From positions 530,086-594,085 of the forward strand of contig JAKOVQ010000016.1 in assembly GCA_029781975.1 (NCBI GenBank): a DNA stretch of 64,000 nt, read 5' to 3'. Position numbers and translations under genes: made by a program. Positions within the stretch are counted from its first letter, which is position 1, and every line of letters starts with the position of its first letter. Shown here one piece after another: positions 3,205 to 15,698 of this stretch. Source of the DNA: Acidobacteriota bacterium. Lineage in GTDB: Bacteria > Acidobacteriota > Thermoanaerobaculia > UBA5066. The notes beneath the pieces are model-generated. The model saw only the letters and a program-made list of their open reading frames with translations, made no database searches and was not told where the DNA came from.

Positions 3205-3392
3205 GGGCTCTCCTTCCTCGAGTCCTCGCCGGCAGGGGAGGCCCGGCCCGAGGCGAGGGACCAGGGAATCCTAGGTTCGATCCCTCGGCGCATCAAGGGA
3301 AAAGGTCCCGCGCCGCCGGGGGAGAAGGGAACGTCCGCCCCGCGCCGGGCGCGGGGCGGACGCGATGGAGACCCGGACGCGAGGGGGCGTGG

Positions 3393-4022
3393 TCAGAAGC
3401 GGAGGCTGAGGCCGACGGAGGCGAGGAAGGGCCTCATGTCGAGCTCGAGCTTCACGCCGGTCGCGTCCGCGGTCGAGTCGGGCCTCAGGTGGACGTACCG
3501 CCCGTCCAGGGTCAGGCCGACGGCGTCCGAGAGGGCGAAGCGGACCCCCGCGCAGGCGGCGAAGGAGAAGGTGTCCTCCAGCGACACCCGGCCGATGCCG
3601 AGGGTGTCGAGGTCGGCGCTGGCGAACGAGTCGAAGAGCGTGTAGGCGCCTCCCGCGCCGACGTAGGGGTCGACGGCCCCGCGCCCGGCGGGATGGAGCT
3701 GGACGAGGAGGAGGAGGGGCGTGATCGTCGCCGACCCGAGCGAGGCGATCTCCTGCCCCCGGAACGTCAGCGCCCCGCGCGACTGGAGGAAGAAGGCGCT
3801 CGCCTCCGCCGAGAGGAGGTGACCGAGGGGGACGTCGAGCGAGACGCCGGGGCGGAAGCTGTCGCGGAAGGCGACCTGGGTCCCGAAGGAGTCGGTGACG
3901 GTCGAGCCGGAGAAGTGGGTGTAAGTCCCCCATGCGGTCAGCTGGAACGGGGCGCGCTGGGCCTCGGCGGCTCCCGCGACGGCGAGGAGGCCGAGGACGA
4001 GGGCGAAGCGGACGGTTCGCAT
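3393..4022 (-). CDS. outer-membrane beta-barrel protein (OmpW/OmpA-like small porin)
   Basis: 209 aa; signal peptide MRTVRFALVLGLLAVAGAAEA|Q; alternating amphipathic beta-strand pattern; C-terminal ...LSLRF (aromatic terminal residue typical of OMPs); 19 nt downstream of acylase stop = same operon. Confidence 0.75.
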   Translation of the reverse strand: MRTVRFALVLGLLAVAGAAEAQRAPFQLTAWGTYTHFSGSTVTDSFGTQVAFRDSFRPGVSLDVPLGHLLSAEASAFFLQSRGALTFRGQEIASLGSATITPLLLLVQLHPAGRGAVDPYVGAGGAYTLFDSFASADLDTLGIGRVSLEDTFSFAACAGVRFALSDAVGLTLDGRYVHLRPDSTADATGVKLELDMRPFLASVGLSLRF

Positions 4023-4041
4023 GCGAATCTGCTCCTCGGTG

Positions 4042-6861
4042 CTACTCGGTCCAGGGGACGACCGGGCCGCCCTGGACGGGGGCCGGGTAGGTGAGGTTCG
4101 TCAGCCACATCGGAAGGAGGTTCACGTAGAGGGGGCTGCCGATCACGCCGCTGACGCCGCCGGGAAGGCTCGACCAGGCCTGGATCCCGTCCGGCGCCGC
4201 GTCGCAGACGTAGCGGCGCGACGGCCCCGAGCCGAACGTGAAGTCGCTCGGCTTCGTCGCCCGGACCCTGTGGTTGGCGACGTCGACGGTCCCGACGCCG
4301 CCCGAGCGCGAGATCCCGGGGAGGCCGGGGACGCTGGGTGGGAAGGCCCCGCCGGCCGGCGGGACGCTGAAGGGGGAGCCGAGCGGGTGGGCGAAGGTGA
4401 TCCGGTGGAGCGTCCCCCACCGGTAGTCGTCGAGGTTCGTCGAATGGCCGAACGCGGGGGCGAAGGCGTCGCCCGCGAGGAGCGCGAGGGTGTCCGAGAG
4501 GCTCTGGAGGATGAAGTAGTCGCGCCGGTCCTCGGGAGCCTGGATGCCGCGGACGGCGAAGAAGTCGAGGCCGGACGCTCCGACGCCGTGGCTCGTCGGG
4601 AAGGTCTCGAGGAGGTGCCTCAGCGCCGGGAGGGTCCCGTTGTGGTCGTTCGACGGGATCGGGAGGTCGAAGGGCGCGAGCGTCCGGTCGATGACCGCGG
4701 AGGCGAAGACGCCCCGCCAGGTCGAGTAGACCGTCGCGGCGACGCTCGCCGCGGCCTGCGCGTCGGTGGGCTCGGTCCCCGCCGGCTTGCCGGGGTCCCA
4801 CCCGTTCGTCAGGCCGCTCGGCGTCGAGAAGTCCCACGTCCTGAGCCGGGCGACCGCGGCGGCGACGCCGGGGTCGGCGGCCAGCGCGGCCAGAGCGGGG
4901 TCCGCGCCGGCCGCCGACCCGCGGTCGAACGCCGCGAGGATGTACGGGACGAAGACCTGCGCGTCGAGGAGGACGTTGTCGGCCTGGATCGCCTTCATGT
5001 CGGCGAGCGAGAGCTTCCCCGCCGAGGCGATCTTCGCCTTGATCAGCTGCGTGATCCGCGCGCAGCGGAAGCCGTCGTAGCCGTAGTTCAGGTAGTAGAA
5101 CCCGCCCGTCGCGCGCCTCTTCGAGAGCGGGTTGTTCGTGAGGGTGACGCCGACCGGGTCGTTGTTCGCGTTCGCGAACCACCCCTGCGCCGGGTCGACG
5201 GCGTGCGGCCGCTCGTCGGGCGGGAGGATCTCGAACGGGAGGGCCTGGTTGGTGTAGACGTTCTTCCGCGGGAGCCACTCGTTGCCGCCCGAGCCGTCCC
5301 GGATGAACCAGGGCGGGAGGCCGTTCACCGTCCCCGCCTCGAGGTCCTCGCGCAGCGGCTGCTCGCCGCTCGTCAGGTACGCGATGCTCCCGGCGGAGTC
5401 GACGACGCCCCAGTTGAACGAGCCGACGGTGAGGTACGTCAGCCCCCGGCGGAAGTCGTCGAGGCTCTTCGCGGTGTCCCACGTCCGGAAGCCGTCGACC
5501 TCGCGCGTCGGGGAGAAGCCGGAGTACTGGAGGGTGAGCGCGGTGCCGTTCGCCAGGTCGAGCGCGATGATCGGCCCGAAGTTGCGGCGCGGGGAGAGGA
5601 GCGTGGCGGGGGGGATCGGCCCGCCGGCGGGGACGACGGAGAGGTCGTCGGGGACCCCGTTGCCGACGTTGTTCTGCCGGAAGACCTCCGGGACGGCGAC
5701 GAGCTGCTCGGGCTTGCCGTCGTGGAGGAGGGCGAAGCCGGCGGGCGACCCCGGGGACGGGACGACCGTCTCGAGGTAGACGTCGGTGACGTCGGTCGGG
5801 TTGTTGGTCGCGCCCCAGGCGACGGAGTCGGTGTTGCCGAGGAGGACGAACGGGACCCCGGCCGCTCCCATCCCGGCGGCGTCGATCGGACCGCCCCGGA
5901 GAGACATCGGGTACCACGTGGAGGGGGTCCCGAGCGAGAGGTGCGGGTCGCTCGCCAGGAGCGGGTGCCCGGTGGTGCTGTACCGGCCGCTCACGGCCCA
6001 CTCGTTCGAGCCGTGGTCCCGGTCGCGGTTCAGGGCCTCGAGGTAGTAGGGGGCGGCGGCCGCGCGATCGCGGTACTCCCGCAGGAGGTCGAGCGCGCCG
6101 CGCTCCCGGAGCGCGGTGAGAGCCGCGGCCGCCCCGGCCCCGAGCCGCGCGGAGCGACGCTGCCAGGCCGACGGGACGCGCCCGGCCGCGGCGGCGGCGC
6201 CGGAGGGCGGCAGGGTCGTCGTCGGGTCGAACGGCTGGGTCCTGACGAGGTCCTCGGCGAAGAGGGCCTCGCCGTCGAAGCCCGCGACCGCCCCCGTCGC
6301 CTCGTACGTCAGGAGGAGCGTCGTCCGGTCGATGTCCGAGTCGTCGAAGAACTGGCCGAGGAGGAAGAGGTTCGCGAAGGAGAGGCTGTCGACCGCCGTC
6401 CACGGCTGGAACTTCGTGATCTCGAGCGCCCCGTACTCGGGCGGGAGCGGGTGGCTCGAGACGTACGCGTTGACGCCGAGCGCGTAGGCGTCCATGGCCT
6501 CGCGCCCCTCCTTCGAGATCAGGCCGTAGGCGGTGCTGGCCGTCCGGCGGAGGCCGAGCGTCCGGAGGAGGACGTCGCTCGAGAGGGCGGCGGGGCCGAC
6601 GAGCTCGGCGAGCGTCCCGCTGGCCTGCCGCCTGAAGTAGTCCATCTGGAAGAGCCGGTCCTCGGCCTGGACCCAGCCGGTCAGGAAGTGGAGGTCCCAC
6701 TCCGTGAAGCCGAAGACCTGGGGGATGCCGTTGGCGTCCCGTGTGATGGTGCCGCCGATCCGCATCCCGGGAAGGCGGATCAGGTCCCCCTTCTCCGAGA
6801 CCTGCGCGGCCGCGGGAGCCGCGAGCGCGAGGACGACGGCCAGGACCAGGCTGCGACGCAT
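4042..6861 (-). CDS. penicillin amidase / acyl-homoserine-lactone acylase family Ntn-hydrolase (S45), secreted
   Basis: Start taken at internal ATG 6861 (MRRSLVLAVVLALAAPAAAQ signal peptide; GAGGAGGAGG SD 6 nt upstream); autoproteolytic nucleophile motif ...DHG|SNEWAVSGRYSTTGHPLLASDPHL; ~939 aa. The annotated 1060-aa ORF upstream extension (6862-7224) is not protein-like. Confidence 0.9.
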   Translation of the reverse strand: MRRSLVLAVVLALAAPAAAQVSEKGDLIRLPGMRIGGTITRDANGIPQVFGFTEWDLHFLTGWVQAEDRLFQMDYFRRQASGTLAELVGPAALSSDVLLRTLGLRRTASTAYGLISKEGREAMDAYALGVNAYVSSHPLPPEYGALEITKFQPWTAVDSLSFANLFLLGQFFDDSDIDRTTLLLTYEATGAVAGFDGEALFAEDLVRTQPFDPTTTLPPSGAAAAAGRVPSAWQRRSARLGAGAAAALTALRERGALDLLREYRDRAAAAPYYLEALNRDRDHGSNEWAVSGRYSTTGHPLLASDPHLSLGTPSTWYPMSLRGGPIDAAGMGAAGVPFVLLGNTDSVAWGATNNPTDVTDVYLETVVPSPGSPAGFALLHDGKPEQLVAVPEVFRQNNVGNGVPDDLSVVPAGGPIPPATLLSPRRNFGPIIALDLANGTALTLQYSGFSPTREVDGFRTWDTAKSLDDFRRGLTYLTVGSFNWGVVDSAGSIAYLTSGEQPLREDLEAGTVNGLPPWFIRDGSGGNEWLPRKNVYTNQALPFEILPPDERPHAVDPAQGWFANANNDPVGVTLTNNPLSKRRATGGFYYLNYGYDGFRCARITQLIKAKIASAGKLSLADMKAIQADNVLLDAQVFVPYILAAFDRGSAAGADPALAALAADPGVAAAVARLRTWDFSTPSGLTNGWDPGKPAGTEPTDAQAAASVAATVYSTWRGVFASAVIDRTLAPFDLPIPSNDHNGTLPALRHLLETFPTSHGVGASGLDFFAVRGIQAPEDRRDYFILQSLSDTLALLAGDAFAPAFGHSTNLDDYRWGTLHRITFAHPLGSPFSVPPAGGAFPPSVPGLPGISRSGGVGTVDVANHRVRATKPSDFTFGSGPSRRYVCDAAPDGIQAWSSLPGGVSGVIGSPLYVNLLPMWLTNLTYPAPVQGGPVVPWTE

Positions 6862-7424
6862 CGATGCCTCCTCCTCGCCGGAACGGAGGCGAGCCCTGCC
6901 CGCCGGCCGCACCGGGCGTTCGTGGGTGTGACGAGAACGGCCCCGACTATGCGAGCGGGCGAACCCGTGGTCAAGGACGGGCCGCGCGTTAGCGCGGTCC
7001 CGCCCCGAAACCCGCGACGCGGCGGAGCCACGGGACGACCGCCGCCGCGGCGTCGTCACGAGGCGGGCGTCGAGCGCGCCCCCCGCCCGGGGATCGGCGC
7101 CCGGCGCCGGGCGGAGGGTCAGCGGGAGGAAGCGGCGACGGTCCGTCCGCTCGGTGTCGTCGTCGCCCTGCACGAGCGTCAGGATGGTGCGTGACCCGTC
7201 GTCGTTCCGGCTGACGTAGACCACGCTGACCCCGAGCCGGGCGTCGAGGTAGGGGCGGAACCGCGGGACCGCTCCCCAGGGAATGGCGATCTCGTAGCGG
7301 GCCGCCCCGGCGCCTCGAGCGCGAACGCGAGGATGGCCCCCTCGTCGAGGACGGCGCCGCGGGCGCCGGACGCCAGGAGGACGGCACCGAAGGCCGCGAC
7401 TCGGAGAAGGGTCCTCGCTCTCAC
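6862..7424 (-). pseudogene. possible frameshifted small secreted-protein gene (or mis-sequenced G-run) between EmrB and the acylase
   Basis: ORF 7179..7424 begins with a good signal peptide (MRARTLLRVAAFGAVLLASGARG) but turns to junk after ~40 aa at a GGGGCGGCCCGC run (~7285); a -1 frame then reads as real protein (RYEIAIPWGAVPRFRPYLDARLGVSVVYVSRNDDGSRTILTLVQGDDDTERTD...) with no stop before the acylase ATG. Confidence 0.25.
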
Positions 7425-7488
7425 GCCCGGTCCCCCGCCCGGAGGGCCGAGGGATTCTAGGCTCCGGCGAGCGGCTCCTGCGACCCGG

Positions 7489-9042
7489 TCAATGGAGCGC
7501 CTCGACCGGGACCTTCCCTCCCTTGCCCTTCTTGAAGAGGACGAGGAGCGGGATGCAGACGAGGAAGAACCCGCCCACGAGGCGGAAGGCGTCCATGTAG
7601 GTGAGGAGCGCCGTCTGCCGGGCGACCACTCCCTCCAGCGCCCCGAAGGCCTTCTGCTGCGCGGCGAGCGGCGGGACGCCGCGGCCGACGAACCCGAGGG
7701 TCACCTTGTGGAGCCATTCCGTCGCGTTCGTGCTGTACGGGGTGAGGTGCCGGATGAGGAGGTCGCGGTGGGTCCAGGAGCGCCGCTCGATGAAGGTGGC
7801 GACGATCGCGATGCCGAAGGAGCCGCCCAGCTGCCGCGCCATGTTGGTCAGCCCGGTCCCCTGCGCGATGTCGGCCCCCTTCAGGTTCGAGAGGGCGATC
7901 GTGGTCAGCGGGACGAAGAGGCACGCCAGGCCGACGCCGCGGAGGACGAGGGGCCAGAAGAAGTCCATCTGGTCCGAGCCGAGGTTCGAGCGCGAGAGCA
8001 TCAGGCAGAAGACGAAGAAGACGACGAAGCCGATCGCGTTGAGGAGCTGGGGCGGGAAGCCGCGCTGCAGGAGCTTGCCGATGAGCGGCATCATCAGCGC
8101 GGTCGCGAGCCCGCCGGGGAGGAGGATCAGGCCGGTCTGCGTGGCGGTGAACCCGAGGATCCTCTGGACGAAGAGCGGGAAGATGAGGACCGACGAGTAG
8201 AGGCCGAACCCGAGGATGAAGGTGAAGACCGTCCCCATCGCGAGCGACCGGTCCTTCAGGACGCGCAGGTCGACGATGGGGTGCTCCGTCCTCAGCTCGT
8301 GCCAGACGAAGAGCGGCAGGACGATCGCGGCGACGGCGGCCAGGACCGTGATGTAGGTCGAGGCGAACCAGTCCTCGCGGTCGCCCCGCTCGAGGACGAC
8401 CTGCAGGCTCCCGATCCCGACGGCGAGGAGGGCGATCCCGAGCTTGTCGATCGAGCCGACGCGCCGCTTGTGCTGCGGCTCCCTGATGAAGGCCAGCGTC
8501 AGGACGGTGGCGGCGATCCCGATCGGGAGGTTGACGTAGAAGATCCAGGGCCAGGCGAAGTTGTCGGTGATCCAGCCGCCGAGCGTCGGGCCGATCGTGG
8601 GGCCGACGACGACGCCGAGGCCGAAGAGGGCGTTCGCGAGCCCGAGCTCCTGCGGCGGGAAGGTCTCGACGAGGATCGCCTGCGAGGTGGAGAGGAGCGC
8701 GCCCCCGCCCATCCCCTGGACGAACCGGAAGATCACGAGCTCCCAGATGTTGCTGGCGTGCCCGCAGAAGAACGAGGCGACGGTGAAGAGGACGATCGAC
8801 CCGGCGAAGTAGCGCCGCCGGCCGAGGACCGAGGAGAGCCATCCGGTCATCGGGAGGACGATGACGTTCGCGACCACGTACGCGACGACGACCCACGCCA
8901 CCTCGTCGAGCGTCGCCCCGAGGTTCCCCATCATGTCGGGGAGGGCGACGTTGACGATCGAGGTGTCGATCAGCTCGATCACCGACGCCGTGATGACCGT
9001 CAGGGTGATGAGCCACTTGCGGAGGGGGTTCGTCTCGACCAC
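7489..9042 (-). CDS. MFS drug:H+ antiporter, DHA2 (EmrB/QacA) family, 14-TMS type
   Basis: 517 aa, GTG start; motifs GWLSSVLGRRR, FRFVQGMGGG, multiple TM segments; typical EmrB architecture. Confidence 0.92.
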   Translation of the reverse strand: MVETNPLRKWLITLTVITASVIELIDTSIVNVALPDMMGNLGATLDEVAWVVVAYVVANVIVLPMTGWLSSVLGRRRYFAGSIVLFTVASFFCGHASNIWELVIFRFVQGMGGGALLSTSQAILVETFPPQELGLANALFGLGVVVGPTIGPTLGGWITDNFAWPWIFYVNLPIGIAATVLTLAFIREPQHKRRVGSIDKLGIALLAVGIGSLQVVLERGDREDWFASTYITVLAAVAAIVLPLFVWHELRTEHPIVDLRVLKDRSLAMGTVFTFILGFGLYSSVLIFPLFVQRILGFTATQTGLILLPGGLATALMMPLIGKLLQRGFPPQLLNAIGFVVFFVFCLMLSRSNLGSDQMDFFWPLVLRGVGLACLFVPLTTIALSNLKGADIAQGTGLTNMARQLGGSFGIAIVATFIERRSWTHRDLLIRHLTPYSTNATEWLHKVTLGFVGRGVPPLAAQQKAFGALEGVVARQTALLTYMDAFRLVGGFFLVCIPLLVLFKKGKGGKVPVEALH

Positions 9043-9122
9043 GGCTGGGGCTTCCTCTGCCGGCGCCTCAGGCGGCGCCGCGCGGACGGCGGTGCGGAGG
9101 GGACGGGGCGGGCGTCAACGCG

Positions 9123-10247
9123 TCAGTCGAGGTGGACGACCGCGTTGACGCTCATCCCCGCGCGGAGCGGGCGCCGGGGGTCGGGCGGGTCGGTCAGGAC
9201 GATCTTCACGGGGACGCGCTGGACCACCTTGACGAAGTTGCCGGTCGCGTTGTCGGGAGGGAGGAGGGCGAACTTCGCCCCCGTCGCCCCGGAGAACGAG
9301 TCGACCTTCCCGTGGAACGAGCGGCCCGGGTAGGCGTCGACGTCGACCTCCACCTCCTGGCCGGCGCGCATCTTCCGGAGCTGGGTCTCCTTGAAGTTCG
9401 CCACCACCCAGGGCGTCGCGTCGTCGACGACGGCGAGGAGCGGCTGCCCCATCTGGACGAACTGCCCGACCTCGACGTTCTTCTTGGAGACGAGGCCGGT
9501 CATCGGGGCGGCGACGACGGCGTACGAGAGCTGGAGCTCGGCCTCGGCGAGGGAGGCCTTCCGCTGCGCCACCTGCGCCTCGGCGGCCGAGACCTGCCGG
9601 AGGGCGCTCTGCGCCTGGGCCCGGGCCGACTCGATCTGGGCGGCGGCCGCCTCGACCTGCGCGGCGGCGGCGTCCCGGGCGGCGACGACCGCGTCGTACT
9701 GCTGCCGCGAGACCTCCTCCTTCTTCACGAGGGGGGAGAGCTTCTCGACGTCCCCCTTCGCCTTCTCGAACGCGACCTTCGCGGCGGCCAGGTGCGCCTG
9801 GGCGACGGCCACGGCGGCGTTCGCGGCCGGGACCGCCGCGTGGGCGACGGAGACCGCGGCGGTGGCGTTCTCGACGGCGGCCTGCGCGGTGTCGACCTTC
9901 GTCTTCAGCTCGCGGTCGTCGATCCTCACCACCGGCTGGCCGGCGGTCACCTTCTGGTTGTCGTCGACGAGGACCGCCGTGACGTAGCCGGAGACCTTCG
10001 GGAGGACCGGGGCGATCCGCGCCTCCACCTGCGCGTCGTCGGTGACGGCGTTGTGGAGGTAGAAGTGGACCGTGTGCACCCCCCAGGCGGCCGCAGCCAG
10101 GAGCGCGAGGACCCCCGCCGTCCGGCCGACGAGGGCGCCGATGCCAGGGCGCCTCCGGTGCGGAGGCGGGGCGGAGCGCTGCTCCTCCGGCTCCGGGGCG
10201 GGGGAGGTGGTGAGCTTCAGGGGCTGCGTGTCGGCCATTCTGGTCAC
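9123..10247 (-). CDS. HlyD/EmrA-family membrane fusion (periplasmic adaptor) protein
   Basis: 374 aa; single N-terminal TM, long Ala/Gln-rich coiled coil, C-terminal beta domain (NFVKVVQRVPVKI); GTG start with in-frame ATG 3 codons in. Confidence 0.9.
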   Translation of the reverse strand: MTRMADTQPLKLTTSPAPEPEEQRSAPPPHRRRPGIGALVGRTAGVLALLAAAAWGVHTVHFYLHNAVTDDAQVEARIAPVLPKVSGYVTAVLVDDNQKVTAGQPVVRIDDRELKTKVDTAQAAVENATAAVSVAHAAVPAANAAVAVAQAHLAAAKVAFEKAKGDVEKLSPLVKKEEVSRQQYDAVVAARDAAAAQVEAAAAQIESARAQAQSALRQVSAAEAQVAQRKASLAEAELQLSYAVVAAPMTGLVSKKNVEVGQFVQMGQPLLAVVDDATPWVVANFKETQLRKMRAGQEVEVDVDAYPGRSFHGKVDSFSGATGAKFALLPPDNATGNFVKVVQRVPVKIVLTDPPDPRRPLRAGMSVNAVVHLD

Positions 10248-10269
10248 TCCTGCGAGGGCGGCGTAGGGG

Positions 10270-11877
10270 TCAGTCCTCGCGGCCGGGGACGAGCTCCCCG
10301 ATCCGCCCGGTGGCGCGCGCGAGGTCGATCGCCGCCTGGGCGGCGCGGGCGATCGCCGCGACGCGGTCCTCCGTGGCGGCGGCGAAGGAGGTCTGGGCGT
10401 TGTCGACCTCGATGCTCGAGGCGACGCCGTTCGAGAAGCGGTCGCGCGCCACGTCCAGCTCCTCGGCGGCGAGCTTCAGGTTGTCCTCGGCGAGCTCCAC
10501 CCGGCTCCGGGCGGTGGCGACGGAGAGGAGCGCCCGCCGGACCTCCTCCTCCACCTGGCGTCCGGCCTCGGTCCGCCGGGTCTCGAGCTCGCGGCGCCGG
10601 ATCCCGGCCTCGGAGCGGCGCGCCTTCAGGAGCCCGCCCGTGAAGACGGGGACCGTGACGCCCGCGTAGATCCCGCGCGTCCACCTCAGGTCGCCGAGGT
10701 CGTTCCCGCTGTAGCCCCCCTGGAGCTGGACGCCGAGGACGGGAAGCCGCTCGGCGTCTGCGGCCTCGACGGCGAGGCCGGCCGCCGACACCCGCTCGTC
10801 GGCGAGCCTCAGCTCGGGCCGGCTCCGCCGGGCGTCGGCGAGGGCCGTGGCGATGTCGGGCGGGGCCGGGGGGACGGCGAGCGCGTCCGTCAGCTCGACG
10901 TCCGAGGCCTGGTCGAGACCGGCCGCGTGGAGGAGGGCGAGGCGGGCCGCGTCGCGCGCCTCCTCCGCCGCGGCCAGCGCCTGCTCCTGGCGCGAAAGCT
11001 GGACGAGCGCCCGCGTCGTGTCGAGCCTCGTCCCGACGCCGGCCTTCCGCTGGTCCTCGGCGAGGTCGGCGAGCTTCTCGAAGAGCTCGACGTTGCTCTT
11101 CAGCGCGTCGACGCTCGCCTGCGCCTGGAGGACCGACGTGTAGAGGGTCGAGACGGCGGCCGCGACGTCGTTCTCCGTCGTCTCCCGCTCCGCGACCCCC
11201 ACCGCGACGCCGGCCCGGGCGGCGTGCCAGCGCGCCCGGGCGGCGAGGTCGATCACGTTCATCGCCGCCGAGACCCGGGCGTCGGTCACGTTGAACGGGG
11301 GGATGACCCTCTGGCCGGGGATCGTGAAGCCGAACGTCTCCAGGTCGATCGACTGGTTCGACTGGGCCAGCTTCGCCTCGACGTGCGGCAGGAGGGCGGC
11401 ACGGGCCTGATCGGCCCGCGCGGTCGCCTCCTCCACGCGTTGTCCCGCGAGGGCGGTCGCCGCGCCCTGGGTCAGCGCCAGCCGAACGGCCTCGGACCGC
11501 GAGAGCCGGACGGTCTCGGCGGAGGCGGGGGCGGCGGCCGACCCGAGGCCCGCGAGGGCCGCCAGCGCCGTGAGGAGAGCCGCGGCCAGGGCCTTCCCTC
11601 CCGGCCGGGTCGCGCGCTCGTCGGCCGCGAGCCACTCCTCGACGTATCCGGGGAGGTTCCGGAGCGCGACCGAGCGCCCCTTCCACGCCGCCAGGGCGGC
11701 CAGCGCCTCGCGGCAGACCGACGAGACCTCGGCGAGGTCGAGGACGACGGAGTCGCCCCGCCCCAGGGCGCCCGTGACGAGGCCGTCCACCTCAGGGAGG
11801 GACGTCGGGCAGAGCCGGCCGGCCAGCGAAATCTCGAAGGAACGGGGGGTCGGGCTGGACGTCTCGATCCGGAGCAT
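10270..11877 (-). CDS. TolC-family outer-membrane efflux factor (OMF) with in-frame N-terminal STAS (anti-sigma-factor-antagonist-like) domain
   Basis: ATG at 11877 (MLRIETSS...). Residues 1-95 look like a STAS fold (ISLAGRL...SVVLDLAEVSSVCREALAALAAWKGRSVALRNLPGYVEEWL), then ALAAALLTALAALAGLGSAAAPASA (signal peptide-like), then two OMF repeats (TolC). No ATG/GTG/TTG between STAS and signal peptide; only GGAGGG-N6-CTG. 22 nt upstream of emrA-like gene. Confidence 0.8.
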   Translation of the reverse strand: MLRIETSSPTPRSFEISLAGRLCPTSLPEVDGLVTGALGRGDSVVLDLAEVSSVCREALAALAAWKGRSVALRNLPGYVEEWLAADERATRPGGKALAAALLTALAALAGLGSAAAPASAETVRLSRSEAVRLALTQGAATALAGQRVEEATARADQARAALLPHVEAKLAQSNQSIDLETFGFTIPGQRVIPPFNVTDARVSAAMNVIDLAARARWHAARAGVAVGVAERETTENDVAAAVSTLYTSVLQAQASVDALKSNVELFEKLADLAEDQRKAGVGTRLDTTRALVQLSRQEQALAAAEEARDAARLALLHAAGLDQASDVELTDALAVPPAPPDIATALADARRSRPELRLADERVSAAGLAVEAADAERLPVLGVQLQGGYSGNDLGDLRWTRGIYAGVTVPVFTGGLLKARRSEAGIRRRELETRRTEAGRQVEEEVRRALLSVATARSRVELAEDNLKLAAEELDVARDRFSNGVASSIEVDNAQTSFAAATEDRVAAIARAAQAAIDLARATGRIGELVPGRED

Positions 11878-12048
11878 CGTGCCTCTCTCGGGAGAATCGA
11901 TTTCAAGTTCGAGGCCATTCGATCGGTGCCGGTAACCCTTGGTTGCGCAACCTTTTCCCGGGGCGGGGTGGGTCCCGGTATTTCGTGAGTCACGACATGT
12001 CGTCACGCTATTTCGGGACTGACCGCCTGCGGGCCATAGAATCGACCT

Positions 12049-13674
12049 GTGGCCGCCCCCGAGGACCGGTACCGGGCTCTCCTCCTCGTCTCCGAGGCCG
12101 CGAACGCCGAGCGGGCGCTCGACGCCGTCCTCTCGGCCGCGAGCGCGGCCCTGAACCGGATCCTGAGGGTCGACTCGGTCGGGATCTTCGAGCTCAGGGG
12201 GGAGACGCTCACCGTCCGCGCGGTCCACGTCCACGGGATCGAGGCGCGCCCCGGAGAGTCGATCGTCGAGGCCATCCGGCGCGCGGCCGGCCTCCCCCAC
12301 GACCTCGACCTCCCCCTCACGCGGAGCCTCCCCCTCGCCGGGACGGGGACGGAGCACGTGATGCGGACTCGCCGGGCGCACCTCTGCCCGAGGCTGGGGG
12401 AGGGGGAGAGCTTCGCCGAGGACGAGCGGCTGCGCCTCCTCGGCGTGCAGACGTACGTCCGCGCGCCGATGCTCGTCCGCGAGAGGTTCATCGGGTCGAT
12501 CTCCTTCTCGAGGACCGAGAAGCTCGCGAGGGGCCCGATCGAGGCCTTCACCGAGGAGGACCGCGACTTCCTGGAGGCCGTGGCCCGGCCGATCGCCGGC
12601 GCCGTCGCGAACGCCCTCGCCTTCGAGGAGATCGCCCGGCTGAAGACGCTCGTCGAGAACGAGAACGTCGCCCTGAGGGAGGACCTCGACGCGGTCGCGC
12701 TCTACGGCGACATCGTCGGCGCCTCCGGGGCGATCCGCGACGTCCTCGCGCAGGTCGAGAGGGTGGCGAGGACCGACTCGACCGTCCTGATCACCGGGGA
12801 GACCGGGACCGGCAAGGAGCTGATCGCGCGCGCCATCCACCGCCGGTCGCCGCGCGCCGAGCGGGCGCTCGTGAAGGTGAACTGCGCGGCGCTCCCCGCC
12901 TCGCTGATCGCGTCGGAGCTCTTCGGCCACGAGCGCGGGGCGTTCACCGGGGCGGTCCAGCGCCGGCTCGGGAGGTTCGAGCTGGCGTCGAACGGGACCC
13001 TCTTCCTCGACGAGGTGGGGGACCTCCCGCCCGAGACGCAGAGCGCCCTCCTGCGCGTCCTGCAGGAGGGGGAGTTCGAGCGGGTCGGAGGGACCCAGAC
13101 GCTCCGGACCGACGCGCGCGTCATCGCCGCGACGAACCGCGACCTCCACGGGGAGGCGGAGCGGGGGAGCTTCCGCCGCGACCTCTTCTACCGCCTCAAC
13201 GTCTTCCCGATCGAGGTCCCACCCCTCCGGGAACGGCGCGAGGACGTGCCGATCCTCGTCCAGTACTTCGCCGCGCAGCACGGGGCGCGGCTGGGGAAGA
13301 GGGTGAGGCGCGTCGACCGGGCGAGCCTGGAGAGGCTGGTCGCCTACTCGTGGCCCGGGAACATCCGCGAGCTGGAGAACGTCGTGGAGCGGTCGATCAT
13401 CCTCGCGGAGGGGGAGACGCTCGTCGTCCCGGAGTCGCTCCCCGGCCGGGAGAAGGCGCCGGCCGAGGGGCCCGGCCCGGTCCCGACGCTCCGCGAGGCG
13501 GAGCGCCGGGCGATCGAGGCCGCCCTGTCGGCCGCGGCGGGGCGGGTCGCCGGGGCCTCGGGCGCGGCGGCGCGCCTCGGCGTCCCGCCGAGCACGCTCG
13601 ACTCGCGGATCAGGAAGCTGGGGATCGAGAAGGGGAGATTCCGCACGGGAGCGCGCGGGGCGGCGAGGAGCTGA
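12049..13674 (+). CDS. sigma-54-dependent transcriptional activator (enhancer-binding protein) with N-terminal GAF sensor domain, no receiver domain (FhlA/NifA-type)
   Basis: GTG start; GAF-like N-terminus, AAA+ sigma54-interaction domain (GETGTGKE Walker A, GAFTGA motif as [14 protein letters not shown] Walker B), C-terminal Fis-type HTH. Confidence 0.92.
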
Positions 13675-13736: not shown

Positions 13737-15698
13737 TTGAGCCAAGACCCCAGCGGCTCCTCGCTCCCCGGCCCCGGCGAGCGAGGGTCGTCCGACTCCT
13801 CCACCGGTGTCACCAGGCACGCCCCCGGGCCTCCGCACGGGAAGTACCTGCTGTTCCTCTCCCTCGGCGCCCTCGGGGTCGTCTTCGGCGACATCGGGAC
13901 GAGCCCCCTCTACGCGCTCCGCGAGTGTTTCTGGGGGCCGCACGCCCTCCCGGTGACCGAGGCCAACGTCCTCGGGATCCTCTCCCTCATCTTCTGGAGC
14001 CTCGTCCTGGTCATCTCCGTGAAGTACCTCGCCTTCGTCCTCCGGGCGGACAACCGGGGGGAGGGCGGGATCCTGGTCCTGATGGCGCTCCTGAGGCCGA
14101 GCCCGAAGGAGCGGTCGCTCCGGACGATGACGCTCGTCGCGATCGGGCTCTTCGGGGCGGCGCTCCTCTACGGCGACGGCATCATCACCCCCGCCATCAC
14201 GGTCCTCTCCGCCGTCGAGGGGCTGGAGATCGTCACCCCGGCGTTCCGCCCGTACGTCGTCCCGCTGACGGTCGTCATCCTGATCGTCCTCTTCTTCTTC
14301 CAGAAGCACGGGACGGCGCGCGTCGGCGCGGTCTTCGGCCCGGTGATGCTCGTCTGGTTCGTGGTCCTCGCGGCGCTCGGCGTGACCCACATCTTCGCGG
14401 TCCCCCGCGTCCTCCTGGCGCTCAGCCCGCACCTCGGCGCCGCCTTCTTCCTCCGGAACGGCCTGCACGGCTTCCTCGTCCTCGGCTCGGTCTTCCTCGT
14501 CGTGACGGGCGGCGAGGCGCTGTACGCCGACATGGGGCACTTCGGGCGGCGGCCCATCCGCGCCACCTGGTTCGCCCTCGTCCTCCCCGCCCTGGTCCTG
14601 AACTACTTCGGCCAGGGGGCCCTCCTCGTCGCCCGCCCCGCGGCCGCCGAGAACCCCCTCTACCGGATGACGCCCTCCTGGGGGCTCGTCCCGATGGTCG
14701 TCCTGGCGACCGCGGCCTCGGTCATCGCGTCGCAGGCGGTCATCTCCGGCGCCTACTCCCTGACGCGGCAGGCGATCCAGCTCGGCTACATGCCGCGCCT
14801 GAAGATCGACCACACCTCGGCGCGGGAGATCGGCCAGATCTACCTCCCCACCATCAACTGGCTCCTGATGGTCCTCTGCATCTGGCTCGTCCTGGCCTTC
14901 GGCTCCTCGAGCCGGCTCGCGGCCGCCTACGGCGTGGCGGTGACCACGACGATGGTCATCACGACCGTCCTCCTCTTCGTCTACGCGCGCCAGGCCTGGA
15001 ACGTGAAGCTCGCGCCGGCCCTCCTGGGGGCCGGCGCGTTCCTGGTGGTGGACCTCGCCTTCTTCGGGGCCAACATCGTCAAGATCGGTCACGGCGGCTG
15101 GTTCCCGCTCGTGGTCGCCCTGGCCGTCTTCACCCTGATGACGACGTGGAAGCGGGGGAGGCGGATCCTCGCCGACCGCCTCCGCGAGGCGACGATGCCG
15201 GTCGACCTCTTCCTCACCGACATCGCCGCCCGCCACCCGCAGCGGGTGAAGGGGACGGCGGTCTACATGGACCGGATCCCGGAGGGGGTCCCGCCGGCGT
15301 GCCTGCACAACCTCAAGCACAACAAGGTCCTGCACGAGCGGATCGTCTTCCTGACGATCGTCACCGACGAGGTGCCGCTCGTCAGGCCGCGCGAGCGGGT
15401 CCAGTCGGAGAGCCTGGGGCACGGCGTCTGGCGGATGACGCTCCGCTACGGCTTCATGCAGGACCCCGACGTCCCCAAGGCGCTCGAGCGGGTGAAGCTC
15501 GACGGGATCCCGATCGAGCCGATGGCGACGACCTTCTTCCTGGGGCGCGAGTCGCTCATCGCGAGCGAGCGGCCCGGGATGGCGAAGTGGCGCGAGCACC
15601 TCTTCGCCTGGATGGCGCGGTCGGAGGGGCGTGCGACGGCCTTCTTCAACATCCCGCCGGGCCGCGTCGTCGAGCTCGGCCTGCAGGTCGAGCTCTGA
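13737..15698 (+). CDS. kup: KUP/HAK/KT-family potassium uptake transporter
   Basis: Real part of the 1251-aa ORF begins near [23 protein letters not shown] (Kup signature N-terminus) and continues with 12 TM helices plus cytoplasmic C-domain; start codon uncertain (no ATG/GTG in frame nearby; TTG at ~13737 proposed). Confidence 0.85.

Follow-up and report, generated by a model that had tools for sequence, protein, structure and literature searches.

Can a single open reading frame (ORF) encode both a STAS domain and a TolC-family outer membrane factor (OMF), and what would such a domain do ahead of a channel bound for export? We took up this question for a gene at the head of an efflux operon in an Acidobacteriota genome (class Thermoanaerobaculia; assembly GCA_029781975.1, contig JAKOVQ010000016.1, positions 530,086 to 594,085; this whole stretch of 64,000 nucleotides is the window below). 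The ORF lies on the minus strand, runs from ATG 11877 to a stop at 10270-10272, and comprises 535 codons (535 amino acids [aa]) in three parts: an 88-residue STAS fold, a cleavable-type Sec signal, and a complete TolC-family channel. A previous, sequence-only reading had offered three explanations, namely, a fusion protein held together by a signal anchor, a STAS gene that had lost its stop codon, and a channel initiated at a noncanonical CTG behind a structured leader. Here, we show that the gene is genuine: an ancient in-frame fusion, maintained by selection, of two genes that usually occur as a separate but translationally coupled pair. The fusion from ATG 11877 was confirmed by Pfam STAS_2, by AlphaFold2 (AF2), by two matches to Pfam OEP, and by about 25 homologues.

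A conserved STAS-fold domain at the N terminus

Codons 1 to 88 (11614..11877, minus strand) encode a STAS-fold domain that is predicted to be cytoplasmic, as judged from Pfam STAS_2, a family-specific hidden Markov model (HMM), AF2, Foldseek, conservation, and dN/dS. Its motif pattern reads MLRIE...GRL...LDL..V..V.RE...PxYVxxW. Pfam STAS_2 (PF13466) matched residues 16 to 83, and the first 95 aa alone, which the sequence-only reading had suggested comparing with the Pfam STAS profiles, scored 31.4 bits against PF13466 (cutoff, 29.2; E = 2e-7). The family-specific HMM gave 81 bits for the domain (E = 1e-24) and found no second copy in the window. AF2 modeled the domain at a mean pLDDT of 95.3 with the element order beta-beta-alpha-beta-alpha-beta-alpha. 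The top Foldseek matches in the PDB were RsbV (TM 0.81), MlaB, and SpoIIAA; RsbS was matched as well, at a probability of 1.00, as were SpoIIAA and MlaB. AF2 and Foldseek thus agree on a SpoIIAA-like alpha/beta fold. No solved structure was found for any member of this STAS family, the matches being weak ones to SpoIIAA only.

The sequence-only reading had also proposed looking for the N-terminal extension in relatives. A database search returned about 25 homologues with the same extension from Thermoanaerobaculia and other Acidobacteriota (99% query coverage, 45 to 63% identity), many of them with a precomputed PF13466 match and all publicly annotated only as "TolC family protein." All 18 fused N-terminal domains tested matched PF13466 (best E = 2.9e-10). 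In the alignment, the domain is exactly 88 residues long in all ~25 homologues, with zero indels, and residues M1, I4, G20, D47, L48, R56, R68, P76, Y78, and W82 are invariant in the fused set. Across three closely related pairs of fused genes, dN/dS over the STAS codons was 0.05 to 0.14, pointing to purifying selection on the fused domain.

A function as a partner-switching anti-sigma antagonist was considered and rejected. When aligned by HMM to SpoIIAA, to which sequence similarity is weak (E = 0.003), the V-D-R-E of the window family falls on M-D-S-S, placing an arginine at the phosphoserine position. The DSS motif, with its phosphorylatable Ser/Thr where helix 2 begins, is absent, and R56 is invariant in the fused set. 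Neither an anti-sigma kinase (HATPase_c_2) nor a PP2C phosphatase was found in the operon or its orthologues, which hold only genes for an enhancer-binding protein (EBP), the OMF, a membrane fusion protein (MFP), and a major facilitator superfamily (MFS) permease. Because the phosphoserine is missing, as are the kinase and phosphatase from the operon, the module has a STAS fold but is not a partner-switching antagonist.

An internal signal peptide and a complete channel

Codons 89 to 120 (11518..11613, minus strand) specify a short linker and an internal Sec-type signal peptide, identified from hydropathy, sequence, unfused orthologues, and AF2. R88, R91, and K95 form the n-region, A96 to L111 the h-region, and the c-region ends in A118-S-A120 followed by E121; signal peptidase I cleavage is predicted between A120 and E121. 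This segment has the features of a Sec signal (a positive n-region, a hydrophobic core of 10 to 16 residues, and small residues at -3 and -1), and alignment shows the same n/h/c layout and the same AxA|E[TP] site in unfused orthologues that start at the signal. In an AF2 model of residues 1 to 135, confidence is high for the STAS domain and moderate for the signal helix (94 to 110), and the c-region is disordered.

In the fusion protein that the sequence-only reading had proposed, this segment was a signal anchor. The cytoplasmic STAS domain, the hydrophobic segment, and the OMF of that proposal stand, but the anchor was rejected given the short h-region, the conserved AxA site shared with unfused orthologues, and a mature N terminus that follows the signal directly without a linker. 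The segment would therefore be a short, ordinary, cleavable signal peptide. Cleavage appears to be required because the conserved mature N terminus directly abuts the signal; in known OMF structures, the mature N terminus lies against the periplasmic barrel and well away from the inner membrane.

The mature channel occupies codons 121 to 535 (10273..11517, minus strand). Two Pfam OEP matches cover it (E = 1.7e-48), and homologues likewise assign it to the TolC family. It scored below the cutoffs of NCBIfam TIGR01844 (114.6 versus 225) and TIGR01845 (82.1 versus 210) and is thus a TolC family member outside the named subfamilies.

As the sequence-only reading had recognized, the gene heads an EmrAB-type (MFS) tripartite pump operon. 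Downstream of it on the minus strand are genes for an EmrA-family periplasmic adaptor (the MFP; 9123..10247; Pfam HlyD_D23/HlyD_3; TIGR00998, 254.6 bits, below the cutoff of 390.8) and a DHA2/EmrB-family MFS efflux permease (7489..9042; TIGR00711, 453.8 bits, cutoff 230.2; Pfam MFS_1). The translated adaptor has a predicted cytoplasmic N-tail of ~45 residues ahead of its membrane helix. The divergent gene at 12049..13674 (plus strand), correctly described earlier as a GAF-sigma54 activator, encodes an EBP with GAF, Sigma54_activat (E = 1e-70), and HTH_8 domains (Pfam, NCBIfam); it is most similar to FhlA, and it is the probable activator of the efflux operon.

Start codon and putative promoter

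Between codons 31 and 147 of the window gene, we found no in-frame stop and no ATG, GTG, or TTG, in agreement with the sequence-only reading; the sole in-frame GTG in the neighborhood is codon 30, within the STAS domain. The start-like signal noted earlier at ~11589 as GGAGGG-N6-CTG is also present, as GGGAGGG-N6-CTG. Initiation at this CTG was rejected because a start at L97 would drop the charged n-region and because the CTG is not conserved. A comparison of 11 fused genes showed no conserved internal start: three, including that of the window, lack ATG, GTG, and TTG in codons 61 to 125, and in L007, a fused relative, codon 88 is an in-frame ATG. An upstream in-frame start at GTG 12006 was rejected as well because all homologues open with MLRIE or MLKIE and because the promoter lies downstream of this GTG.

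A Shine-Dalgarno-like GAGAGG (11882..11887, minus strand) lies 4 nt ahead of ATG 11877, and relatives carry purine-rich, GGAG-like sites at the same place. Beginning 40 nt upstream of the ATG is a putative sigma54-type -24/-12 promoter, TGGCCTcgaacTTGAA (11902..11917, minus strand), which agrees with the consensus at 8 of 11 positions; in its motif, TGGCCT-N5-TTGAA, A replaces C at -12. Every one of the 20 MFS-type loci that could be scored, split or fused, has a sigma54-type element between -36 and -44. For the whole STAS family, 43 of 62 upstream regions contain a motif scoring at least 8, compared to 4.3% of background windows, with positions ranging from -31 to -84 and mostly from -36 to -54. 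No sigma70-like site was found in 7200-12100. A repeat search located overlapping inverted repeats, GTGACGACA/TGTCGTGAC and TCACGAAAT, at 11980..12006, a putative enhancer (upstream activating sequence) for the divergent activator; similar ACGA-N4-TCGT palindromes occur upstream of orthologous promoters. For both elements, we infer the promoter and enhancer roles from sequence.

The promoter and Shine-Dalgarno site at 11877, the lack of a conserved internal start, and the loss of the n-region from the CTG together show that the channel can be made only as a fusion from ATG 11877, its only usable start. Because the N-terminal domain is in addition conserved as protein, the earlier idea of a CTG-initiated channel with a structured leader was abandoned. 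A related alternative is that the extension is nonfunctional, the result of accidental read-through or of an overlong ORF in GC-rich DNA, with the channel starting at CTG 11589 or otherwise. Stop codons are rare in such DNA, and the frame stays open upstream of ATG 11877 as far as 13281; the GGGAGGG-N6-CTG and the ATG at codon 88 of L007 would also fit. We nevertheless consider this alternative highly improbable, given the low dN/dS, the absence of indels, and the invariant residues of the fused homologues, the high-confidence fold prediction, and the promoter and Shine-Dalgarno site placed directly ahead of ATG 11877. Moreover, decay of conserved C, Y, and W residues was seen only in a truncated lineage (P0036, described below) and not in the window gene.

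A family of small STAS proteins coupled to channel genes

Profile searches with the N-terminal domain returned almost solely stand-alone proteins of 85 to 110 residues with the motifs MLRIE, GR[LIV], LDL, V.L[VI]D, and CP.Y..EW; members of this large stand-alone family, typically ~90 residues long, come almost exclusively from Acidobacteriota. There were 147 matches, the fused proteins not among them, and architecture counts from this search are biased toward short proteins; the fused set was assembled from the database protein search and a genome scan. An exhaustive HMM search gave 1,322 clusters (50% identity; E <= 1e-10), again nearly all of 85 to 110 residues. The Joint Genome Institute (JGI) names several family members "MlaB component." The best-scoring HMM representative spans 3,923 aa and contains 28 separate STAS-like stretches, and another is a 200-aa protein with two full copies (P0241 and P0242); both are tandem-repeat architectures of the small STAS domain.

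A degenerate-pattern scan of one genome per species identified 66 loci, all true family members and 65 of them in Acidobacteriota. The pattern demanded an ATGCT start and fixed motif spacing and was run over stored 8-kb blocks, making the scan nonexhaustive and the coverage of flanks partial; gene calls at these loci are ORF picks, checked by tblastn or Pfam where stated. The sole member outside Acidobacteriota (L081, 4032-4286) is in a metagenome-assembled genome of Steroidobacteraceae (Gammaproteobacteria), has an EBP upstream and a sigma54-type motif, and could reflect horizontal transfer or misbinning.

In one relative, a 95-aa STAS gene ends in ATGA, overlapping the start of a separate OMF-MFP-MFS operon. 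This arrangement, with a sigma54 promoter, the STAS gene, the ATGA overlap, and OMF-MFP-MFS, recurs in 12 to 14 loci (type A), and its fused counterpart, with STAS joined to the OMF, accounts for 8 loci and the window (type B). A third arrangement (type C; 8 loci and ~10 metagenome loci, Bryobacterales) has a two-component system followed by MFP, two resistance-nodulation-division (RND) genes, and STAS, which overlaps through ATGA a NodT-like lipoprotein OMF; no EBP and no sigma54 motif were found in these operons. At two further loci, STAS overlaps an OMF of another type. The statement in the sequence-only reading that STAS domains are not normally associated with TolC therefore holds in general but not in Acidobacteriota, where STAS-OMF gene pairs occur and where, as that reading had asked, a separate upstream STAS gene can be seen in the split loci.

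The Bryobacterales operons (L084, L095, L099-L103, L105) encode, in order, a HisKA_3 kinase with Reg_prop/Y_Y_Y, a NarL-type regulator, MFP, RND, RND, STAS, and the lipoprotein OMF. L099 has a PIN-domain ORF between the regulator and MFP genes. In the metagenome-assembled genome of L058, two genes are each split into two frames, the second RND gene (22-2975) and the OMF gene that follows STAS (3261-4780), either through assembly errors or because they are pseudogenes.

In a neighbor-joining tree of STAS domains (all trees here are neighbor joining without support values), the OMF-linked members (types A, B, and C and the two extra loci) group in one superclade apart from the others. All 24 unfused genes of this clade end in A/GTGA overlapping the next gene's start, and 9 members are fused (8 loci and the window). 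Of the 24 overlapping starts, 23 open a long ORF or an ORF that runs off the locus, and the product is an OMF wherever this is testable. In the other clade, an overlapping start was found in 2 of 34 genes. The linkage of STAS to the OMF spans MFS and RND permeases, EBP/sigma54 and NarL-type two-component regulators, and signal peptidase I and lipoprotein channels. From the census of A/GTGA overlaps, the STAS tree, and these varied operon contexts, we conclude that the invariant partner in the window's clade is the channel gene.

The second clade lies at sigma54 promoters beside EBPs, with no channel gene nearby. It includes about 10 loci with an EBP, a sigma54 promoter, STAS, and a sensor-less PspF-like EBP (type D), 6 loci with a PAS-EBP, STAS, and SnoaL/OYE genes (type E), and remaining loci with other EBP-adjacent arrangements. 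In Acidobacteriaceae/Terracidiphilus (L027, L042, L046, L061, L075, L080, L082, L066), a multi-PAS EBP is encoded upstream, and a ~360-aa sensor-less, PspF-like EBP (short N terminus, AAA+ domain with a GAFTGA motif, HTH) begins ~17 to 60 nt after the STAS stop or overlaps it, in what looks like an EBP -> STAS -> EBP cascade. Over the whole scan, an EBP AAA+ domain is encoded within 1.3 kb in 35 of 66 loci, compared to a density of 0.022 per kb in distant flanks, and the STAS start usually follows the EBP stop by 130 to 220 nt. A GAF-EBP orthologue stands immediately upstream of every fused gene of known context, and fused genes from the genome scan have the orthologous EBP upstream wherever the locus reaches far enough.

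History of the fusion

The merger is old since the OMF parts of the fused genes are 45 to 63% identical and the fused domain is under purifying selection. The sequence-only reading had raised the loss of a stop codon from a STAS gene. Historically this is apt, as the TGA of the separate STAS gene in relatives overlaps the OMF ATG as ATGA; as a recent event it is not, in view of the same identities and of the dN/dS values. In a tree of mature channels, split operons and fused genes fall into two separate clades, which suggests a single old fusion. The tree of the short STAS domain would allow up to three.

Channels without STAS are interspersed within the fused group and are encoded at the same syntenic site, flanked by nadB-nadC and sodA/nadA. 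Two STAS-less lineages have a divergent MarR gene and an AT-rich, sigma70-type region, with no EBP and no STAS; the operator regions of these two MarR loci are nearly identical and may derive from one loss event. A third lineage (P0036) has no regulator; about the last 20 residues of its STAS domain are left as a remnant, with substitutions at the conserved C, Y, and W, while the signal is intact. This truncated lineage shows relaxed selection, a pattern not seen in the window gene. With the two MarR loci possibly one event and the regulator-less lineage another, we count at least two independent losses of STAS. Since orthologous channels persist without it, the STAS module is dispensable for the channel as such. 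The syntenic site itself (nadB-nadC ... sodA/nadA/E1 dehydrogenase; L008 and L009 compared with L004, L006, and L010/L011, gene at 6001 in each) hosts a regulatory module that differs by lineage: GAF-EBP with sigma54 and STAS, MarR, or none.

Proposed role of the STAS module

In the role that we propose, the STAS module serves the channel precursor as a dedicated partner in the cytoplasm, is produced 1:1 with it, and acts before export by escorting or holding the precursor or by gating its signal. We give this proposal about even chances; the functional role is the weakest step of our explanation. In the mechanism envisaged, the STAS domain of the emerging chain would fold in the cytoplasm, the internal signal peptide (residues 89 to 120) would enter SecYEG as a hairpin, and the channel part would be translocated. 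Signal peptidase I would then cut after A120, the mature channel would proceed to the outer membrane and serve the EmrAB-like pump, and the STAS domain with the signal-peptide stub would remain at the cytoplasmic face. The module would act in trans in split operons and in cis in the window fusion. It might afterwards report export to the regulator of the operon; in a combined form of the idea, the STAS stub left by cleavage could report channel export to the sigma54 activator. A more comprehensive version regards the small-STAS clade as a cytoplasmic accessory of Acidobacteriota tripartite efflux, dedicated to the channel and kept at 1:1 through ATGA overlap or fusion. The fused form would then be a bacterial counterpart of long signal peptides that have a function after targeting: its folded STAS domain would escort the channel precursor or gate its export and, once signal peptidase has cut, would stay at the membrane or be released to signal export to the sigma54 activator. 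Taken as a whole, this version seems to us unlikely.

Several observations weigh against an export role. Cleavage and topology are predictions from sequence alone, the binding partner is putative, and we know of no STAS domain that acts as a chaperone. The AF2 model of residues 1 to 135 gave no sign of the signal helix docking on the STAS domain, pLDDT being the only measure and uninformative on docking. The module is not essential for channel export, as the MarR lineages and the lineage with the deletion remnant keep their channels, and STAS loss in this lineage coincides with loss of the activator. Finally, the second clade, half of the wider family, is found near EBPs without a channel gene, pointing to a regulatory role.

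The co-loss and the second clade fit the main rival reading, in which STAS is instead a trans modulator (anti- or coactivator) of the sigma54 EBP, in the manner of PspA on PspF or HycA on FhlA, encoded as the first cistron of the operon that the EBP activates. Fusion to the channel would then be a by-product of adjacency that at most ties the release of the regulator to export and cleavage. This feedback is favored by the frequency of sigma54 motifs upstream of family members (43/62), by the proximity of EBP genes (35/66), typically 130 to 220 nt away, by the ~10 loci where a sensor-less PspF-like EBP directly follows STAS, by the GAF-EBP at every fused gene of known context, and by the MarR and regulator-less lineages at the same site, in which STAS is absent or a decayed remnant. 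However, the Bryobacterales operons retain an ATGA-coupled STAS-OMF pair without an EBP or a sigma54 motif, and in the OMF-linked clade the invariant neighbor is the OMF, not the EBP. These EBP-less RND operons, the STAS tree, and the ATGA census weaken the idea that STAS belongs only to the sigma54 activator. Co-loss is also less telling than it appears: STAS and EBP are adjacent, so that a single deletion or replacement removes both, and the MarR loci may go back to one event. We know of no interaction between STAS and an EBP. We regard this feedback, with its by-product origin of the fusion, as less likely than not.

A further possibility places the target of STAS within the pump. Bound to a cytoplasmic pump part (the adaptor N-tail or the permease), STAS could control assembly or activity, as MlaB does on MlaF or as the STAS domains of SulP/SLC26 do. 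MlaB is among the best structural matches and supplies the JGI names, the OMF-linked clade is always within an efflux operon, and the EmrA-like adaptor offers a predicted cytoplasmic tail of ~45 residues. Yet the inner membrane partner varies (MFS versus two RND proteins) while STAS stays joined to the OMF gene, the operon has no ABC ATPase, and the second clade lies outside efflux operons; direct control of the pump is, in our judgment, quite unlikely. The dedicated channel partner proposed above is favored by the OMF gene being the one constant neighbor of the clade, by the conservation of the fusion, by the ATGA/GTGA overlaps of the split form, by the signal and AxA site shared with unfused orthologues, and by the arginine at the phosphoserine position.

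Neighboring genes

Beyond the operon, the window contains a penicillin-amidase gene at 4042-7224 (minus strand). In the closest genome-resolved relative (L002), this position is occupied by SpoIIE/PP2C phosphatase and GGDEF genes (11660-13416), ~4 kb downstream of the orthologous fused gene and outside the operon. Downstream of the EBP gene, an ORF at ~13900-15698 (plus strand) has a Kup-type potassium transporter signature, recognized by eye. PADLOC gave no match to an anti-phage defense component.

Significance

STAS domains, TolC-family channels, EmrAB-type pumps, and sigma54/EBP control are each already well known. In the searchable literature, we found no description of a STAS-OMF fusion, of an OMF-coupled STAS gene, or of an EBP-tied STAS family. 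The window gene is an OMF precursor with a folded cytoplasmic pro-domain, backed by an unannotated family of small proteins that is obligately OMF linked in one clade. OMFs have no cytoplasmic part, and to our knowledge they have no dedicated cytoplasmic protein apart from general chaperones; the coupling of STAS to channels across pump types, regulators, and channel subfamilies points to an unrecognized step in the biogenesis of channels or the regulation of pumps within a major soil phylum. STAS merged onto the signal peptide of a channel once according to the channel tree, and possibly up to three times. The fusion offers a natural case of a folded domain before a Sec signal peptide, useful for studying internal signal recognition, and it defines a large unannotated family of small proteins, the other branch of which marks sigma54/EBP operons.

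Comparison with known systems

The window family shares with SpoIIAA and RsbV the fold, a size of ~90 to 115 aa, a single-domain cytoplasmic form, and weak sequence similarity (E = 0.003). It differs in its arginine (VDRE versus MDSS), in the absence of a kinase or PP2C from the operon, and in being coupled or fused to a channel gene. MlaB, the STAS subunit of the MlaFEDB lipid transporter (PMC7367683), resembles the module in being a small, nonphosphorylated STAS_2 protein that assists an envelope transport system from the cytoplasm. However, MlaB binds the ABC ATPase MlaF, whereas the module is coupled to an outer membrane component without a cytoplasmic part, and no ABC_tran gene was found in the operon in any context examined. 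In SulP/SLC26 anion transporters the STAS domain lies C-terminal to the membrane domain; that of the window gene comes first, ahead of the signal peptide and the OMF.

A large 2021 review of tripartite pumps makes no mention of a STAS domain (PMC8277102). Like the EmrAB-TolC pump, the window operon combines an OMF, an EmrA-family adaptor, and a DHA2/EmrB permease, but its OMF is encoded within the operon and carries an N-terminal STAS domain. Control is apparently through sigma54 and a GAF-EBP instead of a MarR-type repressor, a MarR gene being found at the STAS-less orthologous loci.

In PspA/PspF and HycA/FhlA, a small protein is the first gene of a sigma54-driven operon and lies beside its EBP. 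The likeness extends to the window EBP, which is nearest FhlA, and to the PspF-like sensor-less EBPs that follow STAS in one branch of the family; the folds are unrelated, however, and the OMF-linked STAS clade also occurs without an EBP. Cytoplasmic escorts of exported proteins include the redox enzyme maturation proteins TorD and DmsD of twin-arginine translocation, type III secretion chaperones, and SecB for TolC, and Rem of mouse mammary tumor virus is a long signal peptide with a post-targeting function. None of TorD/DmsD, the type III chaperones, and SecB has a STAS fold, making the comparison one of analogy only, and we know of no bacterial Sec substrate with an 88-residue folded domain ahead of its signal. 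What the module shares with these systems is a small cytoplasmic protein that is encoded beside, and made with, one exported substrate, and that in the fused form becomes a folded domain N-terminal to the signal core.

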